DNA of 64,000 bases from Acidobacteriota bacterium (GTDB lineage Bacteria > Acidobacteriota > UBA6911 > RPQK01 > DATIPO01). Below are positions 21,602 through 62,977 of this stretch, piece after piece. The translations under genes were made by a program, and so were the position numbers. Each line of letters starts with the position of its first letter. Position 1 is the stretch's first letter. The stretch covers positions 41,446 to 105,445 of the forward strand of contig DATIPQ010000098.1 in NCBI GenBank assembly GCA_035471785.1, given 5' to 3'. The notes under the pieces were generated by a model. It was not told the DNA's origin, made no database searches, and was given only the letters and a program-made list of their open reading frames with translations.

Positions 21602-21700
21602 GGAGGTACGTCTCGTCTGGTGACGGGCCTGGTCTTCAAAACCAGTCGAGCCGCGTCGAGAGGCGTGGCTGGTGGGTTCGATTCCCATGTACCTCCGCCA
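21602..21700 (+). tRNA. selC: tRNA-Sec (selenocysteine tRNA, anticodon UCA)
   Basis: 8-bp acceptor stem GGAGGUAC/GUACCUCC with G discriminator and CCA. Anticodon stem CUGGU/ACCAG with loop CUUCAAA (UCA). Long variable arm. 5-bp T stem (8/5 architecture). 99 nt. Confidence 0.85.
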
Positions 21701-23981: not shown

Positions 23982-24119
23982 ATGAAAAGGACTTTTCAGC
24001 CTAATCGCCGCCGCCGCGCCAAGAAACATGGTTTTCGTGCCCGGATGCGCAGTGTCAGCGGTCGCCGGATCATTAATCGCCGCCGCGCCAAGGGCCGGAA
24101 GAAGGTCAGCGTGTCCTAG
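23982..24119 (+). CDS. rpmH: 50S ribosomal protein L34
   Basis: [45 protein letters not shown]. It is below the ORF track's size cut-off. Confidence 0.9.
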
Positions 24120-24481
24120 TGTCCGGAGACTTTCGCTTAAGGCGGGAAATGCGGTTGCGCAAGCGCCGTCAGTTCCTCTCCTTGTACAGCGAGGCGGACC
24201 GAGTCCACACCCCTTTCTTTGTCCTGTTTCTCCGCGCCAACAACCTCCCACACAGCCGTCTCGGCGTCACCGTCTCTAGAAAGATAGGGAAGCCGATTAT
24301 TCGGAATCTCGTCAAGAGGAGGTTGCGCGAGATCTTCCGTCAAGAGCAGGCGAATATCGACCCGCCCTGCGACGTTGTAGTAAATGTCAAGAGGCCGGCT
24401 TCGCGGGCCGCCTACCAGGAGCTTCGGAAAAGCTTCGAGGGAGCGGTGAAACGCTGGAGGTTAGGAGCGAAGGAAAGGTGA
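24119..24481 (+). CDS. rnpA: Ribonuclease P protein component
   Basis: GTG start overlaps the rpmH stop. Basic RnpA-like sequence in the conserved rpmH-rnpA context. Confidence 0.85.
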   Translation: MSGDFRLRREMRLRKRRQFLSLYSEADRVHTPFFVLFLRANNLPHSRLGVTVSRKIGKPIIRNLVKRRLREIFRQEQANIDPPCDVVVNVKRPASRAAYQELRKSFEGAVKRWRLGAKER

Positions 24482-24687
24482 AAAGTTTTGTGGTGGGCTT
24501 GCTCAAGGGATACAAGCGGTTCGTATCGCCGATACTCCCTAAGGCCTGCCGGTTCCATCCCACCTGCTCTGAATACATGCGCGAAGCTGTGGAAAAATAT
24601 GGAGTGATCAAGGGCGTCGGCCTGGGCGTCCGTAGGATAATGCGTTGCCATCCTTGGAATGCGGGAGGGTTTGACCCGGTTCCTTGA
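24478..24687 (+). CDS. yidD: Membrane protein insertion efficiency factor
   Basis: YKRFVSPILPKACRFHPTCSEY signature. Confidence 0.85.
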   Translation: MKSFVVGLLKGYKRFVSPILPKACRFHPTCSEYMREAVEKYGVIKGVGLGVRRIMRCHPWNAGGFDPVP

Positions 24688-24713
24688 AGAGGGAGAATGA
24701 GGCTCGACACCCT

Positions 24714-26468
24714 ATGAACGAACTGCAGGATCCAAAAACCCAAGGATCGGAGTGGCGGGTCATCCTGGCCGTTGTCTTGTCCATGCTGGTTGTGCTGAGC
24801 TTCCAGTTCTTCATGCCGCGGCCGGCGAGCACTCCCGTTGAGTCGATTCCTCCGCCGGCCGTCCAAGGAGAAGACCCCGAAGCGTCCGCCGCAGGTACGC
24901 AGAACGCCACTGCTGAAACCGCGACTCCGCCGCCGTCCTCAAACGCCCGGCAGGGCGCCGAAGAATTGCCGCCGACGCAGGCATCCCCAACTGAGGTGGT
25001 GATGGAGAACGACGCCATGCGGTTGATATGGAGCAACCGCAGGGGCGGTCTGGTGTCGGCCGAATTACTCAACTACTTCAATGACAAAGGCCTGCCCGTG
25101 CAAGTACTTCCTCAGAACTTGCCCGAAGACGCTACGCGGCCCCTGGAAGTGAAGGTGGCCGGCGAGGTCTACGAGTCGATTCTGAGGGAAGCGGTCTACG
25201 AAGTGGAAGGGCCATCGGGCGGACGGGTTCCCGCGGGCGGAGAATTGAAGATGCGTTTCCGCCGCGGGCCTCTGCAGGTGGAAAGGCGCATCCGCATTCC
25301 CCGGGAGGGCTACACGCTGCAGGTGAGCACGGACGTGCGGGTGGACGGGGTGAGCACCGCCTACACCTTGACTATGGGCGCCGGAATCGGGCGACATGGT
25401 CCGGAGAGCGGTTGGCAAGGCGATTTCCGCTATCCCCGCGTGGTCTATCGCGGCGCCGGCGGACTCACCAGTTTCGGTTCAGGCGGTCTGGAAGGCGAAA
25501 GACATATCAGCGGCAGCCCGGTGGATTGGCTGGCTGTCGACAGCCTCTATTTCACCTACGTATTACTGAGCGGCGAACGCCTTTTTCCTCGCGCCGAGGT
25601 CTTCGAACGTAGCTACGCCTTTCCCAACGCTGAAGGCGAAGTCGAGGAGAAAGTCCTGCAACTGGCCGAGGTGCAGGTGCCGGCCGGGGCCCAGGTGGAT
25701 CTGTTTATCGGTCCCAAATACCCTGAGCGGTTGCGCGCGGTTGAGCCAAGCCTGCCCCAGCTCATCGACTACGGGTACCTTGAGATTCTGGTCGTTCCCC
25801 TCAAGTGGGCGCTCAACAGGGCCAACGATTTCATCCACAACTACGGCTTCTCCATCATTTTCCTGACCTTCGCCATCAACCTGGTGCTGGCCCCTATCCG
25901 CATCAAACAAGTCCGCTCCATGAAGAAGATGGGCGAACTCCAACCGCAGATGAAGGCCATCCAGGAAAAGTACAAGAAGATGAAGCGCGATGACCCGCGG
26001 CGCTTAAAGATGAACGAAGAGGTGATGGCGCTCTACAAACAGCACGGCGTCAATCCCCTGGGCGGATGTCTCCCGCTGCTGCTGCAGATGCCGTTCCTCT
26101 TCGCCTTTTATCAGATGATCGCCTACTCGATCGAGTTGCGGGAAGCGCCGTTCATGCTGTGGATACAAGACTTGTCGCGCCCCGATCCCTATTACATCAC
26201 CCCCCTGGTCATGGGCGCAACCATGGTAGGCCAGCAGGCCATGACGCCTTCCATGGGCGACGCGACTCAGCGCAAGATGATGATGTTCATGCCGGTGGTC
26301 TTCACGTTCTTCTTCCTGAACGTGTCGAGCGGTCTGGCGATTTACTTTCTTTTCAGCAATGTCTTCGGAATGGCCTTCCAAAAGGGATTCCAGGCCTTGA
26401 TGCCGGAAGAGGAAAAGAAAGTGTCGAGCAAACCCAAGGGTCCATCCAAGAAAAGCAGGAGGAAGTGA
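24714..26468 (+). CDS. yidC: Membrane protein insertase YidC
   Basis: Large periplasmic domain plus a C-terminal 60-kDa IMP core (LPLLLQMPFLFAFYQ). ATG 24714 is used; the in-frame TTG at 24684 is the alternative. Confidence 0.85.
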   Translation: MNELQDPKTQGSEWRVILAVVLSMLVVLSFQFFMPRPASTPVESIPPPAVQGEDPEASAAGTQNATAETATPPPSSNARQGAEELPPTQASPTEVVMENDAMRLIWSNRRGGLVSAELLNYFNDKGLPVQVLPQNLPEDATRPLEVKVAGEVYESILREAVYEVEGPSGGRVPAGGELKMRFRRGPLQVERRIRIPREGYTLQVSTDVRVDGVSTAYTLTMGAGIGRHGPESGWQGDFRYPRVVYRGAGGLTSFGSGGLEGERHISGSPVDWLAVDSLYFTYVLLSGERLFPRAEVFERSYAFPNAEGEVEEKVLQLAEVQVPAGAQVDLFIGPKYPERLRAVEPSLPQLIDYGYLEILVVPLKWALNRANDFIHNYGFSIIFLTFAINLVLAPIRIKQVRSMKKMGELQPQMKAIQEKYKKMKRDDPRRLKMNEEVMALYKQHGVNPLGGCLPLLLQMPFLFAFYQMIAYSIELREAPFMLWIQDLSRPDPYYITPLVMGATMVGQQAMTPSMGDATQRKMMMFMPVVFTFFFLNVSSGLAIYFLFSNVFGMAFQKGFQALMPEEEKKVSSKPKGPSKKSRRK

Positions 26469-26472
26469 ATCG

Positions 26473-26928
26473 ATGACGGAGCAAAGCGAGAAGCTGGCGG
26501 CCCAGGTGGAAAAATTCATGACCGAGCTGCTCGGGCATATGCAGTTGGATGTGAAGATGGAGTTGGAGGAGACGGACCAGACCATCGAAGTCCGGCTGAG
26601 CGGCGCGGACTCTGAAGTGATCCTCAGAAACGGCGCCCGCACCCTCGAGGCCTTCAACGACATCGTCAATCAGATCTTTTATCAACCTCGCGACGTGCGG
26701 GTCGAGATCGATTGTGAAGATTACCGGCTGGGGCGAGTCCTGGAGTTGGAGCTGTTGGCGCGAAGCGCGGCCGAGAAGACTCGTGTATCGGGCCAGTCCT
26801 TCCGCTTTCAGCCCATGCCGCCGGCTGAACGCCGCACCATTCATCTCACGCTGGCCAAGGAAGAGGGCGTGCGCACGGAAAGCTCGGGCCACGGCACCAA
26901 CCGCCATGTCGTGGTCATGCCCGCCTAG
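26473..26928 (+). CDS. khpB: Jag/KhpB RNA-binding protein (KH + R3H)
   Basis: C-terminal R3H-like motif (ERRTIHLTLAKEEGVRTESSGHG). Confidence 0.8.
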   Translation: MTEQSEKLAAQVEKFMTELLGHMQLDVKMELEETDQTIEVRLSGADSEVILRNGARTLEAFNDIVNQIFYQPRDVRVEIDCEDYRLGRVLELELLARSAAEKTRVSGQSFRFQPMPPAERRTIHLTLAKEEGVRTESSGHGTNRHVVVMPA

Positions 26929-26940
26929 CGAGGTGCCGAC

Positions 26941-28317
26941 GTGTCGGCTGATCTCAACGACACGATCATCGCTCTAGCCACGGTTCCCGGCCGCAGCGCT
27001 CTGGCGCTATTGCGCATCAGCGGCCCACAGTCCCTCGAGTTTCTGACCCGCCTCTGTGAGGCCCGGCAGTGGAGAGAACGTCCCCGCCAGGCACGGTTGA
27101 CGCGCCTCAACGATCTGCAAGGCGGCGAAATTGACCGCGGCCTGGTCACCTTCTTTTCCGCTCCGCATTCCTACACGGGACAGGACGTGGTCGAGATCTC
27201 CCTGCACGGGAGTTCCTGGGTTTGCCGCAAGGTCCTGGAGTGCGCACTGCAGTCGGGACTCCGTTTGGCGGGTCCGGGCGAGTTCACTCAACGCGCCTTC
27301 TTGCTGGGGAAGATGGATCTGATCCAGGCCGAGGCGGTGCGCGATCTGATCGAGAGCGAAACGGCCTTCCAAGCCAGGGTCGCGCGCAGCCAGATGGAGG
27401 GCGCTCTGAGCAGGCGCCTGCAACCTCTCAAGGATGAACTGGTCAAAGTCATATCCCACATGGAGACGGCCCTGGAGTTCGTAGAGGACCAGGTCGAACC
27501 CGAAGGCCGGGAAGCCCTGACGCAGCGTCTGCTGGAAGCGGCCGATTTTCTGGCTGAGCTGGAGGAGAGTTTCCAGGTGGGACGGCTCTTGCACGAGGGA
27601 ATTACGATAGCTCTCGTAGGTCGTCCGAACGTGGGCAAGTCGAGTCTCTTCAATGCTCTCATGAGCGATGAGCGCGCCATCGTCACCGAGATTCCGGGCA
27701 CCACGCGCGACGCTTTGAGGGAGAGGGTCGATCTGCACGGAATCCCCGCCCAGATCGTGGATACGGCCGGCATCCGGGAAACCCGGGAGGAGGTTGAAAA
27801 GCTGGGCGTGGAACGCACTTTGCAGATGGTGGCCGAGGCCGACGTGAGCGTCTTCGTGGTGGATGGGGCGGAGCCTTTCTCCGACGAGGATAGTAGATCA
27901 TGGCAGGCGGTGGAGGGACGGCGCCCGCTGCTGGTGGTCAACAAGCGCGACAAAGGGGTGTCGATCGAGCTTCCTGAGCGGGTCGAGCAAGGCTGCATCG
28001 GCCGTCTGGAAGTGTCGGCGGCGAGCGGGGAAGGGGTGGACCGGCTGCGGCAGGAATTGTGGCGCTTGGCCGGGGGAGAGGAAGTGGCGGCGGGCGGGGA
28101 GGCGGCGTTGCTGACCAATGTGCGCCAGCAAGGCTGCGTGCGCGAGTGCCGGGAGGCCCTCTTGGAGGGCTTGCAGGGATATCGTTCAGGCTTGAGCGAG
28201 GAATTTGCCCTCTATGACCTGCGCCGGGCCTTGGAGGCCCTGGGCAGGCTGACGGGCGAGGTGACGGTGGAGGAGATCCTGGGCGAGATCTTTTCCACGT
28301 TCTGCATCGGCAAGTAG
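26941..28317 (+). CDS. mnmE: tRNA modification GTPase MnmE
   Basis: GRPNVGKSSLFNAL, DTAGIRET, and a C-terminal CIGK. Confidence 0.9.
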   Translation: MSADLNDTIIALATVPGRSALALLRISGPQSLEFLTRLCEARQWRERPRQARLTRLNDLQGGEIDRGLVTFFSAPHSYTGQDVVEISLHGSSWVCRKVLECALQSGLRLAGPGEFTQRAFLLGKMDLIQAEAVRDLIESETAFQARVARSQMEGALSRRLQPLKDELVKVISHMETALEFVEDQVEPEGREALTQRLLEAADFLAELEESFQVGRLLHEGITIALVGRPNVGKSSLFNALMSDERAIVTEIPGTTRDALRERVDLHGIPAQIVDTAGIRETREEVEKLGVERTLQMVAEADVSVFVVDGAEPFSDEDSRSWQAVEGRRPLLVVNKRDKGVSIELPERVEQGCIGRLEVSAASGEGVDRLRQELWRLAGGEEVAAGGEAALLTNVRQQGCVRECREALLEGLQGYRSGLSEEFALYDLRRALEALGRLTGEVTVEEILGEIFSTFCIGK

Positions 28318-29215: not shown

Positions 29216-30007
29216 TTAGCCGGCGCCGGCGGTGGCGGGCTCGAGCTGAATGCGGTCCAGCAGCTCGCGGGCCAGTTGCAGATAGGAGCGGGCGCCGCGG
29301 CAGCGCGGGTCGTAGAGGAGGATGGGTTTGCCGAAGCTGGGAGCCTCGGCCAGGCGGACATTGCGCGGAATCACGGTCTGCATCAGGTGTTGGGGCAGGT
29401 GGCCGGCGATGTTTTCCTGGATTTGGGTGGAGAGGTTGAGACGGTCGTCGAACATGGTCAGAAAAACACCCTCGATGCTTAAGGCCGGATTGAGGTGATC
29501 GCGAACCCGCTGAAACGTGCCCAACAAGTCGGAAAGCCCCTCCAGGGCGAAATACTCGCATTGAATGGGGATGAGCAGGGAATCAGCGGCCGTAAGCGCG
29601 TTGACGGTGAGAATGCCCAGAGAAGGGGGACAGTCGATGAGGATCAGGTCATAGCGTCCCCAAAGAGGGCTCAAGACCTTCCTGAGGCGGAACTGGCTTT
29701 CTTCTTCCTCCAGGAGTTCCAGCGTGGCGCCGGTCAGGTCGCGGTTGGAAGGCAGCAGGGAGAGGCGGTCGACTTCGGTGGCGCAGACCGCCTCGGCGGC
29801 GGGAAGGCGGTCGATGAGGCAGTTGTAGACCGACCGCCGCAAGGAGACCTTGTCGATGCCGAAGCCGGAAGTGGTGTTGCCCTGAGGGTCGAGGTCGACA
29901 AGCAGGACGTGCAGGTCGGCTGCCGCCAGGGAGGCGGCCAGATTGATGGCCGTGGTGGTCTTGCCCACTCCTCCTTTCTGATTGACGATGGCGATGGTCT
30001 TCGGCAT
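29216..30007 (-). CDS. parA: Chromosome partitioning ATPase ParA/Soj
   Basis: [25 protein letters not shown]. Confidence 0.9.
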
Positions 30008-30038
30008 GCGAGGCAGAATAACACGAAAGGGAAGGGAA

Positions 30039-30054
30039 TGTTTCACGTGGAACA
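30039..30054. other. parS site 1 (TGTTTCACGTGGAACA; 15/16 to consensus)
   Basis: One mismatch to TGTTTCACGTGAAACA. Confidence 0.6.
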
Positions 30055-30065
30055 GAGGGGGCCGA

Positions 30066-30081
30066 TGTTCCACGTGAAACA
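30066..30081. other. parS site 2 (TGTTCCACGTGAAACA; 15/16 to consensus)
   Basis: It is the exact reverse complement of site 1 and lies 11 nt away, forming a 43-bp composite palindrome. Confidence 0.6.
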
Positions 30082-30097
30082 CTTCCCGGAAGCCCGT

Positions 30098-36701: not shown

Positions 36702-37450
36702 GCGCCGTCCTGACCGTCCGCGACGTCTGCCTTTCCTACCGCCATAAAGCCGCCCTTTCGCCGGGGCGGGATGAGGACAAACAGGTGCTACGCGGCGTCT
36801 CCTTCCAGCTTCACAAAGGCGAGTCGCTGGGATTGGTGGGCGAATCAGGATCAGGCAAAACATCGCTGGCCCGCTGTCTGCTGGGAATAAACGAGCCCGA
36901 CTCCGGAGAGATCGTTTTCTCTCGGGGCGGCCCGGGAAAAGTGCAGGCCATCTTTCAGGACCCCCTGGCTTCGCTCAATCCTCTAATGACGGTGACCAGC
37001 CTCATTCTGGAACCGCTTCGGGTCGCAAGCCGCCATCTGGCAGCCGAGGAATCGATGAAAAGGGTCCGAGATCTCTTGCCAGCGGTGTCCCTGCCTCCCG
37101 GTGTCCTTGACCGCAAGCCTTCCCAGCTCTCGGCTGGACAGCGGCAGAGGGTAGCCATTGCCCGAGCCCTGGCAACCGATCCGGAGATCCTGATCGCCGA
37201 CGAGCCCACCTCGGCGTTGGATGCTTCTCTCAGAGTGCAGATCCTGGAATTGCTGCGCTCGGCTCAGCGCAGCCGGGACTTGGCCATGCTGATGGTCACT
37301 CATGATTTGGCGGCGGCGGCCCGCTATTGCGACCGCATCGCCGTTCTCTATCAGGGCCGCCTGGTCGAGACGCTGCCGTCCCAGGACTTGTTTGGTGCGC
37401 CCCAGCACCCGTACACGCGGCGTCTGGCCCGACTGGTATTGGAAAAGTAG
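36698..37450 (+). CDS. ABC transporter ATP-binding protein (DppF/OppF-like)
   Basis: TTG start overlaps the upstream stop (TTGA). GESGSGKTS, LSAGQRQR, ILIADEPTSALD. Confidence 0.75.
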   Translation: MSAVLTVRDVCLSYRHKAALSPGRDEDKQVLRGVSFQLHKGESLGLVGESGSGKTSLARCLLGINEPDSGEIVFSRGGPGKVQAIFQDPLASLNPLMTVTSLILEPLRVASRHLAAEESMKRVRDLLPAVSLPPGVLDRKPSQLSAGQRQRVAIARALATDPEILIADEPTSALDASLRVQILELLRSAQRSRDLAMLMVTHDLAAAARYCDRIAVLYQGRLVETLPSQDLFGAPQHPYTRRLARLVLEK

Positions 37451-37471: not shown

Positions 37472-38194
37472 CTATCCAGTCAGGGCCGCCGCCGCTTCAG
37501 CGCGCTTGTTCTCCGGCACCTTCTCATCTCTCTCGATCTGTCCATCGCGAAGGTAGATGATGCGCCTGGCGAAATGGGCGATGTCCTGCTCGTGGGTGAC
37601 GAGCACGATGGTGTGGCCGGCCCGGTGAAGGCGGTCGAAAAGACCCATGATCTCGAGTCCGGTGCGGGAATCGAGATTACCCGTGGGCTCGTCGGCCAGG
37701 ATGATGGAAGGATTGTTGACGAGGGCGCGGGCGACGGCCACGCGCTGGCGCTGGCCCCCCGAGAGCTCGTTGGGTTTGTGATCGACCCGGTCAGCCAGTT
37801 CCACCTGCGTCAGGGCTTCCAGGGCTTGTTGGCGGCGTTTGCTGGAAGGAATACCCGAATAGATCAGCGGCAGTTCGACGTTGTGAAGCGCCGTAGCCCG
37901 GGCCAGAAGATTGAAGGTTTGAAAGACGAAACCAATCTCCTTGTTGCGGATGCGCGCCAGCTCATCGTCGTGCATCTCGCTGACCAGCTTGCCATTGAGA
38001 TAGTACTCGCCCTGGCTGGGCGTATCGAGGCAGCCGATCAGGTTCATCAAGGTCGACTTGCCCGATCCCGAGGGACCCATGATGCCGACGTATTCGTTCT
38101 TTTCGATGTCGAAGGTTACGTCGTGGAGGGCGTGAATCTGCTCTGAACCCATCACGTAGGTCTTCCAGAGATTCTTAGTGCTGATCAGGGGCAC
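37472..38194 (-). CDS. ABC transporter ATP-binding protein (MacB/LolD/FtsE-like)
   Basis: [35 protein letters not shown]. Confidence 0.85.
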
Positions 38195-52330: not shown

Positions 52331-55300
52331 ATGATTCATCGCGAAATACAATCCCTGCTGCACGAGCGCATCCTGCTGTTGGACGGCGCCATGGGCACCG
52401 CCATCCAGGACCAGAAGCTGGCCGAAGAGGACTATCGGGGATCCCGCTTCAAGGATCACCCTTGCGATCTGAAGGGCAACAACGATCTGCTCTGTCTCAC
52501 CCAGCCGCAACTGATCGAAACCATCCACAGGCGCTATTTGGAGGCGGGCGCCGACTTCATCGAGACCAACACCTTCTGCGCTTCGGCCGTCTCTCTGGCC
52601 GATTACCAAACGGGAGATCTGACCTACGAGATCAATCTGCAGGGGGCCCGCCTGGCCCGCCAGGCCGTGGAGGACTTCTGCCGCAGCCAAGGCACGGGTC
52701 CGCGCTGGGTGGCGGGAGCCATCGGCCCCACCAACCGCACCCTCTCCATCTCGCCTGACGTCAACGACCCCGGATACCGGGCCGTGACCTACCGCCAGAT
52801 GCAGGACTCCTACTTGCAGCAGGTTCTGGGGCTGCTGGAAGGCGGAGTCGATGTGCTGCTCATCGAGACCGTCTTCGACGCCCTCAACTGCAAAGCGGTG
52901 CTTTCAGCCATCGCTCAAGCGGCCCAGGAGACCGGCCGCCGGACGCCCGTCATGGTTTCAGGCACCGTGGTCGACAACAGCGGACGCACGCTCTCGGGAC
53001 AAACGCCTGAGGCCTTCTGGATTTCGCTGCGCCACGCCCCCCGGCTGCTGGCGGTAGGACTCAACTGCGCCCTGGGATCGGAGCAGATGCGTCCCTACAT
53101 TGAAGAGATCTCCCAGGTGGCCGACACCTACACCAGCCTTTATCCCAACGCGGGACTTCCCAACCAGTTCGGCGAGTACGACGAGAGTCCGGAGTTCATG
53201 GCCCGCCATCTGCGCGACTATGCTGAGAGCGGCTTCGTCAACATGGTGGGAGGCTGTTGCGGCACCACTCCTGAGCATATCCGGGCCTTCGCCGAGGCCG
53301 TGCGCGGCCTTCCTCCGCGCCAGGTGCCCAAGATGGAGCCATTGTTGCGGCTGAGCGGATTGGAACCGCTGGTGGTCCGCCCCGACTCCAACCTGGTCAA
53401 CGTAGGCGAGCGCACCAATGTGGCGGGATCGCCCAAGTTCAAGCGCCTCATCATGGAGGGCGAATTCGAAGAGGCCCTCTCGGTGGCGCGTGAGCAGGTG
53501 GAAAGCGGGGCCCAGATCATCGACGTCAACATGGACGAGGGGATGCTCGATTCCGAGGAGGCCATGCGCAAGTTCTTGCTGCTGCTCTCGGCCGAGCCGG
53601 ACATCGCGCGGGTGCCGGTCATGATCGATTCCTCCCGCTGGACGGTGCTGGAAGCCGGGCTGCAATGCCTGCAAGGCAAGAGCGTGGTCAATTCCATCAG
53701 CCTCAAGGACGGCGAAGACTCCTTTCGCAAGCAGGCCAGCAAAGCCCTCGAATATGGAGCCGCCGTCGTGGTCATGGCTTTTGACGAGAAAGGTCAGGCC
53801 GACAACTTCGAGAGGCGCATCGAAGTCTGCGCACGTGCCTACAAGATCCTGGTGGAAGAGGTGGGATTCCCGCCTCAGGACATTATTCTCGACCCCAACA
53901 TCCTGACCGTGGCCACCGGAATCGCCGAGCACGACAACTATGCCGTCGACTTCTTGCGTGCCACCCGCTGGATCAAGGAGAACCTGCCCTGGGCCAAGGT
54001 CAGCGGCGGAGTCAGCAACATCTCTTTCTCATTCCGCGGCAACAATGTCGTGCGCAGGGCCATGCATTCGGCTTTCCTCTACCATGCCGTGCAATCGGGC
54101 CTCGATATGGCCATCGTCAATCCGGCTCATCTGGACGTCTACCAGGACATCGATCCCGATCTGCTGGAGAAAGTGGAGGACGTGCTGCTCAATCGCCGTC
54201 CCGACGCCACCGAGCGGCTGATCGAATTCGCCGGCACCGTGCAGGAAGGCGAAATTGAAGAAAAGGCCGAGCAGGACTGGCGGGGCCGGCCGGTGGAAGA
54301 GCGGCTCAAGCACGCCCTCGTCAAGGGCGTCGCCGACCACGTGGAAGACGACGTCGAGGAAGCCCGCCGCAGATACCCTTCTCCCCTGGCCGTCATCGAG
54401 GGTCCGCTGATGGATGGGATGAACGTGGTGGGAGACCTTTTCGGCGAAGGCAAAATGTTCCTGCCCCAGGTGGTCAAGAGCGCCCGCGTCATGAAGAAAG
54501 CCGTTGCCTACCTGATTCCCTTCATCGAAGAAGAGCGGCAGGCTTCCGGGGGGAGCAACAGCAAGGGCAAGGTGTTGGTGGCCACGGTGAAGGGAGACGT
54601 CCACGACATCGGCAAGAACATCGTGGCCGTGGTCTTGCGCTGCAACAATTTCGAGGTGATCGACCTGGGGGTCATGGTCCCCAGCGAGAAGATCCTGGCC
54701 AAGGCCCGCGAGATCGGTGCCGACATCATCGGACTGAGCGGGCTCATTACGCCCTCGCTGGACGAGATGGTGCACGTGGCCAAAGAGATGGAGCGGCAGG
54801 ACTTCGAATTGCCCCTGCTCATCGGAGGCGCCACCACATCGCGCGTCCACACCGCCGTCAAGATCGAACAACGGTATCCCAAGGCTCCCGTCGTGCATGT
54901 GCTGGACGCATCGCGCAGCGTCGACGTGGTGCGCCGGCTCATCGATCCCCAATTGCGCGGAACTCTCTGGGAGGAGGTGCGGCAAGACTATGCCCGACTA
55001 CGCGAGCGCTACGCTCAGCGGGGACACTCGACCCGCCTGCTGACTCTGGAAGAGGCGCGCGGCAACCGTCATCAAGTCGACTGGGACCGCGCTCTGCCCG
55101 CACCCCGAGACAGCGGGCTTCAGGTCTTGCGCGACTTCCCGCTGAGCGAACTGCGTAACTATATCGACTGGACTCCCTTCTTCTTGACCTGGGAGCTGAC
55201 TGGAAAGTACCCCGATATTCTCGATCACCCCTCGATGGGAGGCGAAGCGCGCAAGCTGCTGGAGGACGCCCAGTCCATGCTGGACAGGCTGCAAGAAGGG

Positions 55301-56041
55301 AAACTGATCCGCGCCCACGGCGCTTTTCGGCTCTTCCCCGCCGCCCGCGTGGAGGACGACATCGAGGTTTACGCCGATCAAGAGCGCGAGGAGGTGCTGG
55401 CCGTTCTCCATACACTGCGCCAGCAGACCCAGAAAACGGGCGGCCATCCCAATCGGGCTCTGGCCGATTATGTGGCCAGCCGCGAGAGCGGACTGCACGA
55501 CCACCTGGGGCTGTTCGCCGTCACTGCAGGAGATGGCGTGGCCGAGCTGGCCCGCCGGTTCGAGGAAGAGCACGACGATTACAACGCCATTCTGCTCAAG
55601 GCCCTGGCCGACCGTCTGGCCGAAGCTTTCGCCGAGTATCTGCACCAGAAGGTGCGGCGCGAGGCCTGGGGATACGCCGCCCAGGAAGAGCTGGACATTC
55701 AAGCCCTCATCGCCGAAAAGTATCAAGGCATCCGTCCAGCTCCGGGATATCCGGCCCAACCCGATCACACCGAGAAACGCACCCTCTTCCAGTTGCTCGA
55801 CGTTGAGGACAAATTGGGAATCGTGCTGACCGAGAGTTGCGCCATGATGCCGGCGGCCTCGGTGTGCGGCATCTATTTCTCCCATCCCGATTCGGCCTAC
55901 TTCAACTTGGGCAAGATCGGGCGCGACCAGGTCGTCGACTACGCGCGCCGCAAGGGCATGCCGCTGGAAGAAACCGAGCGCTGGCTGGCTCCCGTGCTGG
56001 CCTACGACCCCGACCGTATGGAGGCGGCGGCTCCAGCCTAG
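52331..56041 (+). CDS. metH: Cobalamin-dependent methionine synthase
   Basis: 1236 aa with Hcy-binding, pterin-binding, B12-binding ([11 protein letters not shown]) and AdoMet-activation domains. Confidence 0.9.
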
Positions 56042-56110
56042 GGGTAGCGAGCGACCTCATACCGTCGAGCGCAATTGAGCATTCACCGCGGTCGCTGAAA
56101 CTTGACCCGT

Positions 56111-56140
56111 GTGTGAACTTGTTGGCCACCTAGTGGCCCT
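56111..56140. repeat. Intergenic repeat copy 1 (GTGTGAACTTGTTGGCCACCTAGTGGCCCT), containing GGCCAC-CTA-GTGGCC palindrome
   Basis: 30/30 nt identical to 62887..62916. Flanking CTTGA...CG is also shared. Confidence 0.5.
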
Positions 56141-56190
56141 TGCCCAACCACCAATTTCCTAGGACCAACTACCAAGAGAGAGATCGAGCC

Positions 56191-56631
56191 TTAACTCGGA
56201 TCCTCGTCTTGGACGCGGAACTGGGAGTGGCCTTCTTTTTTCCACTCGAAGAGACGCCTTAACAGTTGGCCGGCCTGCTCGCTATCGCCTGCTTCCACCG
56301 CCGCCTGGAACTCGTCCAAGGTGCTCAGCATCTTGTCGATGGTCTGGCGGAATTCGGCGACGAAGGCTTCACGTTCCTCCTCGGGCAGGTCGGCTGTTTT
56401 CAGCGGTTTTTCCTTCTGGGCGGCCAAGGCATGAAGGCGGAACTCCTTGATCAACTCCAGCACCGAAGCCTTGTTGGCCGCGTCGCGGGATTGACGACGA
56501 ATCTGGCGCAGAATGTCGTTCATGTTCTCCATTCGCTGCACGATCTCGGGCTTTTCCTCATCTTGAGGAGCGGCCGCAGCAGGAAGGGAAGCGCTTATCA
56601 GCAACGAAAGTGCGAGAAGGATTCTGCTCAT
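56191..56631 (-). CDS. Cytochrome b562-family protein (periplasmic four-helix bundle)
   Basis: Signal peptide. Block similarity to E. coli CybC (MENMNDILRQI vs METLNDNLKVI; ALAAQKEKP vs ALDAQKATP; C-terminal EGHSQFR vs AYHQKYR). Confidence 0.65.
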   Translation of the reverse strand: MSRILLALSLLISASLPAAAAPQDEEKPEIVQRMENMNDILRQIRRQSRDAANKASVLELIKEFRLHALAAQKEKPLKTADLPEEEREAFVAEFRQTIDKMLSTLDEFQAAVEAGDSEQAGQLLRRLFEWKKEGHSQFRVQDEDPS

Positions 56632-62248: not shown

Positions 62249-62383
62249 GGCTTCTCCAGGATGTCGGGCTCAGAATAGCAGATTGCCGGCCCTTTCACCT
62301 GACGGCTGTGCGGGTTGATGAACGAGGTTCGCGCCCGCAGGAGCGGGTGTTGTAGACTCTTCCATGGTATGGGAGACGCGAGT

Positions 62384-62860
62384 ATGGCATTGTCGGCGGA
62401 AAAGTTTCGCGCTGTCATGAGGAATTACGCCATGGGCGTCACGGTGGTCACCACCCAGGGCTTGGCTGGTTGCCCATACGGCGTTACGGTAACCGCCTTT
62501 ACTTCTCTCTCGCTGGACCCCTTGATGGTCCTGGTGTGTCTCGACCAAAAACTGAGCGGGTTGGAGCTGTTCGAAGACTTCGGACGCATGGGCGTGAACA
62601 TCCTGGCCGAGGGACAGGAAGACGCTTCCGTCTTCTTTTCCCGGCCCAGCACCGACCGAACCGAATTCGACTACGTTCAGGGAGAGAACGGGCTCCCGCT
62701 GCTGGCCGACTGCCTGGCCTGGCTGGAATGCGATATCGTGCAGAGCTATCCGGGAGGCGACCACAAGATTCTGGTGGGCCGCGTCACCAATGCCGTGCTC
62801 CGCAGCGACCGCAAACCCTTGCTTTATTATGACGGCGCCTACGCCAGGTTGGCGGACTAG
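62384..62860 (+). CDS. Flavin reductase (NAD(P)H:flavin oxidoreductase, HpaC/RutF-like)
   Basis: GGGAG RBS 8 nt upstream of the ATG. FRAVMRNYAMGVTVVTT...FTSLSLDPLMVLVCL. Confidence 0.85.
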   Translation: MALSAEKFRAVMRNYAMGVTVVTTQGLAGCPYGVTVTAFTSLSLDPLMVLVCLDQKLSGLELFEDFGRMGVNILAEGQEDASVFFSRPSTDRTEFDYVQGENGLPLLADCLAWLECDIVQSYPGGDHKILVGRVTNAVLRSDRKPLLYYDGAYARLAD

Positions 62861-62886
62861 AAGTAGCGAGCAGCCTCTTGATTCGG

Positions 62887-62916
62887 GTGTGAACTTGTTG
62901 GCCACCTAGTGGCCCT
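62887..62916. repeat. Intergenic repeat copy 2
   Basis: Identical 30-mer to 56111..56140. It sits 27 nt after the flavin reductase stop and 62 nt before the kinase start. Confidence 0.5.
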
Positions 62917-62977
62917 AGAAAGGCGAAACTTTCCTCTACAAGTGTCGTAATGTAACTTGGTCGTCCCCTTCACAGCC

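Follow-up and report, generated by a model that had tools for sequence, protein, structure and literature searches.

A miniature CTAG-flanked repeat of uncultured Acidobacteriota, probably a MITE-type element

Bacterial MITEs are about 50–400 bp long and have no coding capacity; RUP is a MITE derived from IS630/Tc1-mariner elements, and the Correia/NEMIS elements likewise duplicate TA. REP and REPIN sequences typically reach tens to hundreds of copies per genome. REPs that are co-inherited with a RAYT keep their sequence while their positions differ, and long-term maintenance is a better documented property of REPIN-RAYT systems than of MITEs. MITEPsy1 of Pseudomonas syringae pv. phaseolicola, a 100-nt element derived from the IS5 family, duplicates CTAG or YTAA (PMC3189936), and IS5 itself produces YTAR target duplications (PMC5009759). 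For IS630 the target is the TA within CTAG, according to the work of Tenzen and Ohtsubo (1991) as it is cited in PMC2170065. Here we define a previously undescribed family of miniature repeats in a clade of uncultured Acidobacteriota, starting from two copies found in a single contig.

The repeat in the window

The window (by which we mean the whole 64-kb stretch of DNA analysed) contains two exact plus-strand copies of the 30-mer GTGTGAACTTGTTGGCCACCTAGTGGCCCT, direct repeats in the same orientation and 6.8 kb apart, just as a first, sequence-only reading of this DNA had noticed (Table 1). No further copy was found in the window with up to 3 mismatches allowed, and 100 shuffles gave 0 matches, with 0 expected by chance. 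The slightly longer 40-nt stretches at 56101–56140 and 62877–62916 are 93% identical. In the pairwise alignment, moreover, homology reaches upstream as far as the stop codons of the preceding genes, as CTAG-NN-GTAGCGAGC..CCT, so that the 30–40-mer is simply the right arm of a larger element. The repeat that the sequence-only reading described is therefore real, but the size of 30–40 nt given to it did not hold, the true units being 97 nt (copy 1) and 54 nt (copy 2), the latter without about 43 nt of copy 1 (about 56058–56100). A Logan contig (L001), assembled from short reads of the same strain and matching the window at 99.8% identity, breaks off precisely at 56111, where copies 1 and 2 part ways, as one would expect at a repeat. 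The coding capacity of the element is nil, all known copies being 54–103 nt long with a longest open stretch of 31 codons in any frame, and its end sequence, the one that a parent IS would have at its ends, is GGCCACTAGGTGGCCAACAAGTTCACAC.

Table 1. Positions of the repeat copies, their neighbours and other features in the window
Feature	Position	Strand	Remarks
metH	52331–56041	+	upstream of copy 1; MetH by Pfam
Left flanking CTAG, copy 1	56038–56041	+	metH stops here (TAG, 56039–56041)
Copy 1, full-length "A-type" element, 97 nt	56042–56138	+	left module, central imperfect hairpin, right terminal hairpin
Start of left module, GTAGCGAGCGACC, copy 1	56044–56056	+	
Central imperfect hairpin, copy 1	about 56082–56117	+	fold prediction
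Exact 30-mer common to copy 2, copy 1	56111–56140	+	part of right arm
Right terminal palindrome GGCCAC-CTA-GTGGCC, copy 1	56124–56138	+	6-bp stem, 3-nt loop; CTAG in loop
Right flank CTTG, copy 1	56139–56142	+	one mismatch from the CTAG that follows other copies
Stretch between copy 1 and cytochrome b562 stop codon	56143–56190		about 50 nt, includes CCTAGG
Cytochrome b562 gene	56191–56631	minus	downstream of copy 1, convergent
Flavin reductase gene	62315–62860	+	upstream of copy 2; by Pfam
Left flanking CTAG, copy 2	62857–62860	+	flavin reductase gene stops here (TAG, 62858–62860)
Copy 2, internally deleted element, 54 nt	62861–62914	+	left end GTAGCGAGC..CCT joined straight to right arm CTTGATTCGGGTGTGAACTTGTTGGCCACCTAGTGGCC
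Exact 30-mer, copy 2	62887–62916	+	
GGCCAC-CTA-GTGGCC hairpin, copy 2	62900–62914	+	6-bp stem, 3-nt loop
Right flanking CTAG, copy 2	62915–62918	+	with the next two bases, CTAGAA on both sides of copy 2
tRNA-Sec gene	21602–21696	+	Rfam, 75 bits
rnpA-yidC-jag-mnmE	24119–28317		
parA	29216–30082	minus	
parS sites TGTTTCACGTGGAACA and TGTTCCACGTGAAACA	30039–30054 and 30066–30081		perfect, inverted
101-nt inverted repeat	37109–37209 and 37683–37783		70% complementarity

The right end of the element has the shape first ascribed to it, folding and downstream sequence agreeing on the short stem, the 3-nt loop and the missing U-tract. The terminal hairpins of the two window copies are followed by CTTGCCC or CTAGAAAGG, and with CTTGCCCAACC or CTAGAAAGGCG downstream of the hairpin, without any U-tract, neither copy is an intrinsic (Rho-independent) terminator. 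A promoter and terminator scan reported no site at either window copy. The Rfam search that the sequence-only reading had proposed has now been run, and the covariance models gave no match to the element, either across the whole window at the gathering threshold or in the two local regions at up to E = 10. Sigma-70, ECF and sigma-54 promoters as well as CRP/FNR-type sites were considered by eye and rejected, since copy 1 is faced by the 3′ end of the convergent gene and neither the spacing nor the hexamers suit such sites. Read on its minus strand (CCACTAGGTGGC), the palindrome at 56124–56138 resembles the vertebrate CTCF consensus, which we regard as a coincidence. The A-type copies, window copy 1 included, have weak terminal inverted repeats (TIRs), with a similarity of only about 60% between left arm and inverted right arm.

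Both copies lie just downstream of plus-strand genes, as had been proposed, and the assignment of these genes to MetH and a flavin reductase was borne out by Pfam. On the other side, a cytochrome b562 gene converges on copy 1 with its 3′ end, and a Ser/Thr kinase gene begins 62 nt downstream of copy 2. The rarity of CTAG was likewise confirmed, with 40 occurrences in the window against 224 (mononucleotide) or 94 (Markov) expected. It is evident that these are unevenly placed, as intergenic DNA and stop codons account for 23 of the 40, yet 89% of the window is coding. TAG is the stop codon of 22 of the 54 genes called in the window. No transposase was found among the 56 window genes, nor any gene for a Y1 transposase (RAYT/TIRYT).

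Other features of the window deserve mention in their own right. The two parS sites stand at the 5′ end of parA, which adjoins gidB and gidA, with the rnpA-yidC-jag-mnmE genes close by, and the window looks like an origin-proximal housekeeping region of the chromosome; no DnaA box cluster was seen. The tRNA-Sec gene comes directly after the F420 genes cofC and cofE and overlaps the start of a mechanically called DeoC-like ORF, the true start of which is probably later. The 101-nt inverted repeat spans two adjacent minus-strand ORFs, one of them unannotated and the other an ABC ATPase.

Copies and empty sites in a sister genome

An exact scan of 185,579 species-representative genomes with an 18-nt core of the element gave five matches, four of them in one Acidobacteriota MAG, SMAG_U15852 (GCA_035471925.1), and one unrelated. 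The four MAG loci have no similarity to the window outside the element. Two of these copies (L006 and L010) have the full form and are 96–97% identical to window copy 1 over 97–103 nt, while L009 is full-length and diverged. The remaining one, L007, consists of the right arm together with an inverted copy of it, giving a near-perfect palindrome of 97 nt with arms of about 45 nt (DNA fold –40.4 kcal/mol, z = –11), and its right arm is 97.6% identical to that of window copy 2. The structural variants, namely the 43-nt deletion and the full palindrome, have no common fold beyond the 15-nt hairpin. In total, six copies are known, at six unrelated loci in two genomes, and an nhmmer profile of the full-length copies found no diverged copy beyond these six in the window and all fetched loci. 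Paired cores 1–2 kb apart were found in no representative genome in the 18-nt core scan.

Searches in other kinds of sequence were negative. A metagenome scan with a 20-mer yielded no true homologue, its matches being four copies of one low-GC, apparently unrelated locus (L002–L005) that we have set aside as a coincidence. There was no match to two sub-patterns in viral contigs, to two forms of the element in plasmid and phage BLAST, or to peptides translated from the element (spurious ORFs) in the protein database, and the element is absent from the metH loci of more distant relatives (MetH 69% identity; L012–L014). The family is confined to a narrow group of uncultured Acidobacteriota and, as far as seen, has a narrow host range and a low copy number, with 2 copies in 64 kb of the window and 4 exact 18-mer cores in the MAG, a count that diverged copies or unassembled repeats would escape.

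The genes beside the copies are metH, a flavin reductase gene, SCO1, peptidase M23/acetate kinase, HNH and a transposase fragment. Two of the MAG copies are in accessory-looking DNA (neighbourhoods L006, 3–1205, and L010, 1144–1485). One of them is separated by about 400 nt from an incomplete ORF that encodes a Mu-transposase C-terminal domain, and the other lies 44 nt from a small HNH endonuclease gene, adjoining a 1446-aa kinase-STAND-WD40 protein.

The closest MetH homologue (83% protein identity) is found on a 107-kb contig of the same MAG, in a neighbourhood (L011) that is syntenic with the window from 42.4 to 63.9 kb, at about 78% nucleotide identity over 21 kb and with the gene order glmS-metH-cyt b562-...-flavin reductase-kinase. 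The nhmmer profile found no copy of the element in this neighbourhood, and both window sites are empty there. Specifically, the spacer between metH and the cytochrome b562 gene is 0 nt in the MAG, where the metH stop is TGA, versus 149 nt in the window, and that between the flavin reductase and kinase genes is 72 nt versus 117 nt, the orthologous flank GAAACTTTCC ... GTCGTA being recognisable immediately after the element. An 11-nt similarity of the element (GCTGAAACTT) to the empty site of the MAG was judged to be due to chance (E = 7.9). Whether the element is present does not depend on the surrounding genes, and between the two genomes it is 96–97% identical versus about 78% for the syntenic DNA; these two properties are the signature of mobile DNA and not of a locus-bound regulatory site. 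With its orthologous sites empty, the element is also less likely to be a conserved operator or RNA motif that goes with these genes.

The stretch from copy 1 to the cytochrome b562 stop codon (Table 1) has no counterpart in the sister MAG, where the genes abut. Either an ancestral spacer or what is left of another insertion may account for it.

CTAG is found on both sides of three of the six copies (window copy 2, L010, and L007), and two more have a pair with one mismatch, either CTAG on the left and CTTG on the right (window copy 1) or CCAG and CTAG, respectively (L006). At L009 the left flank is not clear and the right one is TTAG. In four of the six copies the flanking tetranucleotide includes the stop codon of a real gene, the left CTAG containing the TAG that ends metH, the flavin reductase gene and the SCO1 gene (at L007), while the flank of L009, read as CTAA on the other strand, contains the TAA stop of acetate kinase. 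Since MetH ends at the same alignment position in the window and in the sister MAG, the metH stop most likely predates the insertion and served as its target, instead of having been brought by the element. CTAG is self-complementary, however, so the flanking CTAGs could be inverted-repeat ends and not a target duplication. Between the left CTAG and GTAGCG stand two bases that vary even among near-identical copies (GG, AA, AG, and AC), and no simple model fits them. Target and orientation statistics are weak because only six copies are known.

Origin of the element

The direct observations (the structure and dispersal of the repeat, its absence from the orthologous sites, and the overlap of its CTAG flanks with stop codons) are best explained, with a probability that we put at roughly 0.6, by copies of a small, non-coding and non-autonomous transposable element of the MITE type, inserting at CTAG/YTAR and moved in trans. 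Copy 1 would represent the full-length form and copy 2 an internal-deletion derivative, of the kind expected of a MITE. The element would be an imperfect palindrome, with a conserved right arm ending in the GGCCAC-CTA-GTGGCC hairpin, and would insert into CTAG or a close YTAR variant, presumably duplicating CTAG or its central TA. It would be moved in trans by the product of a transposase gene at another place in the genome, most likely a DDE enzyme, either of the IS5 type (4-bp YTAR duplication) or of the IS630/Tc1-mariner type (TA within CTAG). Because CTAG is depleted inside genes and so many genes end in TAG (22/54), harmless targets would often be the C-TAG of stop codons, and therefore copies come to sit immediately 3′ of ORFs. 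A copy in sense orientation would be transcribed within the 3′ UTR of the upstream gene, and any effect of its hairpin on mRNA 3′ ends would probably be a side effect. Counting against a MITE, besides the weak TIRs of the A-type copies, the self-complementary CTAG and the two variable bases next to it, the core scan of the representative genomes gave no autonomous element with matching ends and the window has no transposase. In addition, 97% identity between genomes that are 22% apart needs either recent horizontal spread or long-term maintenance.

The main alternative, possible although rather unlikely, is a REP/REPIN- or PATE-type repeat mobilised by a single-strand-specific tyrosine (HUH/Y1) transposase, whether RAYT, an Acidobacteria-type TIRYT or an IS200/IS605 TnpA. 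Such an enzyme would recognise the terminal hairpin and the adjacent tetranucleotide (CTAG for GTAG) without duplicating the target, and the self-complementary CTAG fits this equally well. On the minus strand the terminal unit reads as CTAG joined to a GC-rich palindrome of 15 nt, which is how GTAG-tagged REPs are laid out, and the left module begins with GTAG. However, REPs are imperfect palindromes of 20–40 nt tagged with GTAG or CGTC, and here the tag beside the main 15-nt palindrome is CTAG; the GTAG sequences at 56044 and 62863 are not followed by a compact palindrome. The layout of a REPIN, an inverted doublet forming a long hairpin, is seen in one copy only, L007, with its two inverted units about 60 nt apart. 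Conservation of 96–97% between genomes that are 78% identical, at differing positions, would be in line with inheritance alongside such an enzyme, and Acidobacteria have been reported to carry Y1 transposases flanked by long TIRs, together with derived repeat families (PMC3733652). Against this stand the seemingly low copy number (2 in 64 kb, with 4 exact cores in the MAG), the window without a Y1 gene, and the four of six copies that abut a pre-existing stop codon through the flanking tetranucleotide, which is easier to understand with the tetranucleotide as target, though this last pattern is also compatible with insertion of the IS200/IS605 type on the 3′ side of a CTAG target. A more specific version, in which the element is a REPIN-like repeat with a CTAG tag, kept long-term in Acidobacteriota by a domesticated Y1 transposase (RAYT/TIRYT), appears doubtful to us. 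If true, it would add a third class of tag to the GTAG and CGTC palindromic repeats and would make the targeting of C-TAG stop codons a systematic modifier of 3′ UTRs in this lineage. Of the three options offered by the sequence-only reading, the REP-like one came closest, in that the repeat is dispersed over unrelated intergenic sites and varies in presence, but a classical REP is not what was found, given the CTAG tag, the low copy number and the lack of a RAYT in the window.

The other two options, a structured RNA motif and a protein-binding palindrome, are unlikely, with the orthologous sites empty in the sister genome and no Rfam family matching. Their general form is a selected cis-acting sequence, be it a 3′-UTR stabiliser, a non-canonical terminator hairpin or the operator of a palindrome-binding protein, which would owe its constancy to function. 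The very high conservation relative to background could be read in this way, as could the position of copies right behind ORFs, where the four core-genome copies share the orientation of the upstream gene, and the predicted stability of the GC-rich hairpin. We consider it improbable, nevertheless, as the element is missing at both orthologous sites of a syntenic genome, the flanking genes are functionally unrelated, the variants keep only the 15-nt hairpin in common, the window copies have neither U-tract nor promoter-like site nor Rfam match, and two informative tandem-gene cases do not make the orientation bias significant. The pair of direct copies in the same orientation, 6.8 kb apart, might also have arisen by local duplication, as the sequence-only reading had allowed in case the genome held only these two, or might be att-site repeats bounding a 6.8-kb inserted island. 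This we have rejected as extremely improbable, because the segment carries housekeeping genes without an integrase, its synteny extends to the sister MAG, where both repeats are missing, and four more copies are found at unrelated loci in GCA_035471925.1.

With a MITE-type element as the preferred reading, the repeat belongs to a well-known class, that of miniature mobile repeats or selfish DNA, and current understanding is unchallenged; the main value of the analysis is that the palindrome is not to be mistaken for a terminator, an operator or an sRNA. A CTAG-specific element in a CTAG-depleted genome would land on stop codons and in doing so mimic a downstream regulatory motif. The family also breaks short-read assemblies and marks recent insertions that are usable as strain or lineage markers.

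Comparison with known systems

Like MITEPsy1, the element is about 100 nt long, non-coding and flanked on both sides by a CTAG/YTAA-type tetranucleotide, here the presumed target, and both have a low to moderate copy number and a narrow host range, the copies of MITEPsy1 being >97% identical (PMC3189936). There is no sequence similarity between the two, however. MITEPsy1 has clear 18-nt TIRs that match its parent IS, ISPsy2, and has been caught transposing (PMC3189936), whereas in the family described here strong TIRs occur only in L007 and it is solely comparative data that point to mobility.

With the MITEs of the IS630/Tc1-mariner group (RUP and Correia/NEMIS) the element shares the size class, an intergenic location beside gene ends, inverted arms able to form hairpins and, around what may be a TA duplication, the CTAG context, although its ends match no IS630 end tested and its copy number is apparently far lower than that of RUP or Correia. 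A short GC-rich palindrome with a conserved tetranucleotide also characterises the REP/REPIN-RAYT systems and the TIR families of Acidobacteria with TIRYT (PMC3733652). The likeness to REPINs extends to the inverted doublet and hairpin of about 100 nt in L007, and that to REP/REPIN-RAYT systems to the location downstream of genes and to a sequence kept across related genomes while positions differ. What separates the element from REP and REPIN sequences is the lack of a RAYT/TIRYT gene in the window, the low copy number, the CTAG tag in place of GTAG or CGTC and, finally, flanking CTAGs that coincide with pre-existing stop codons.
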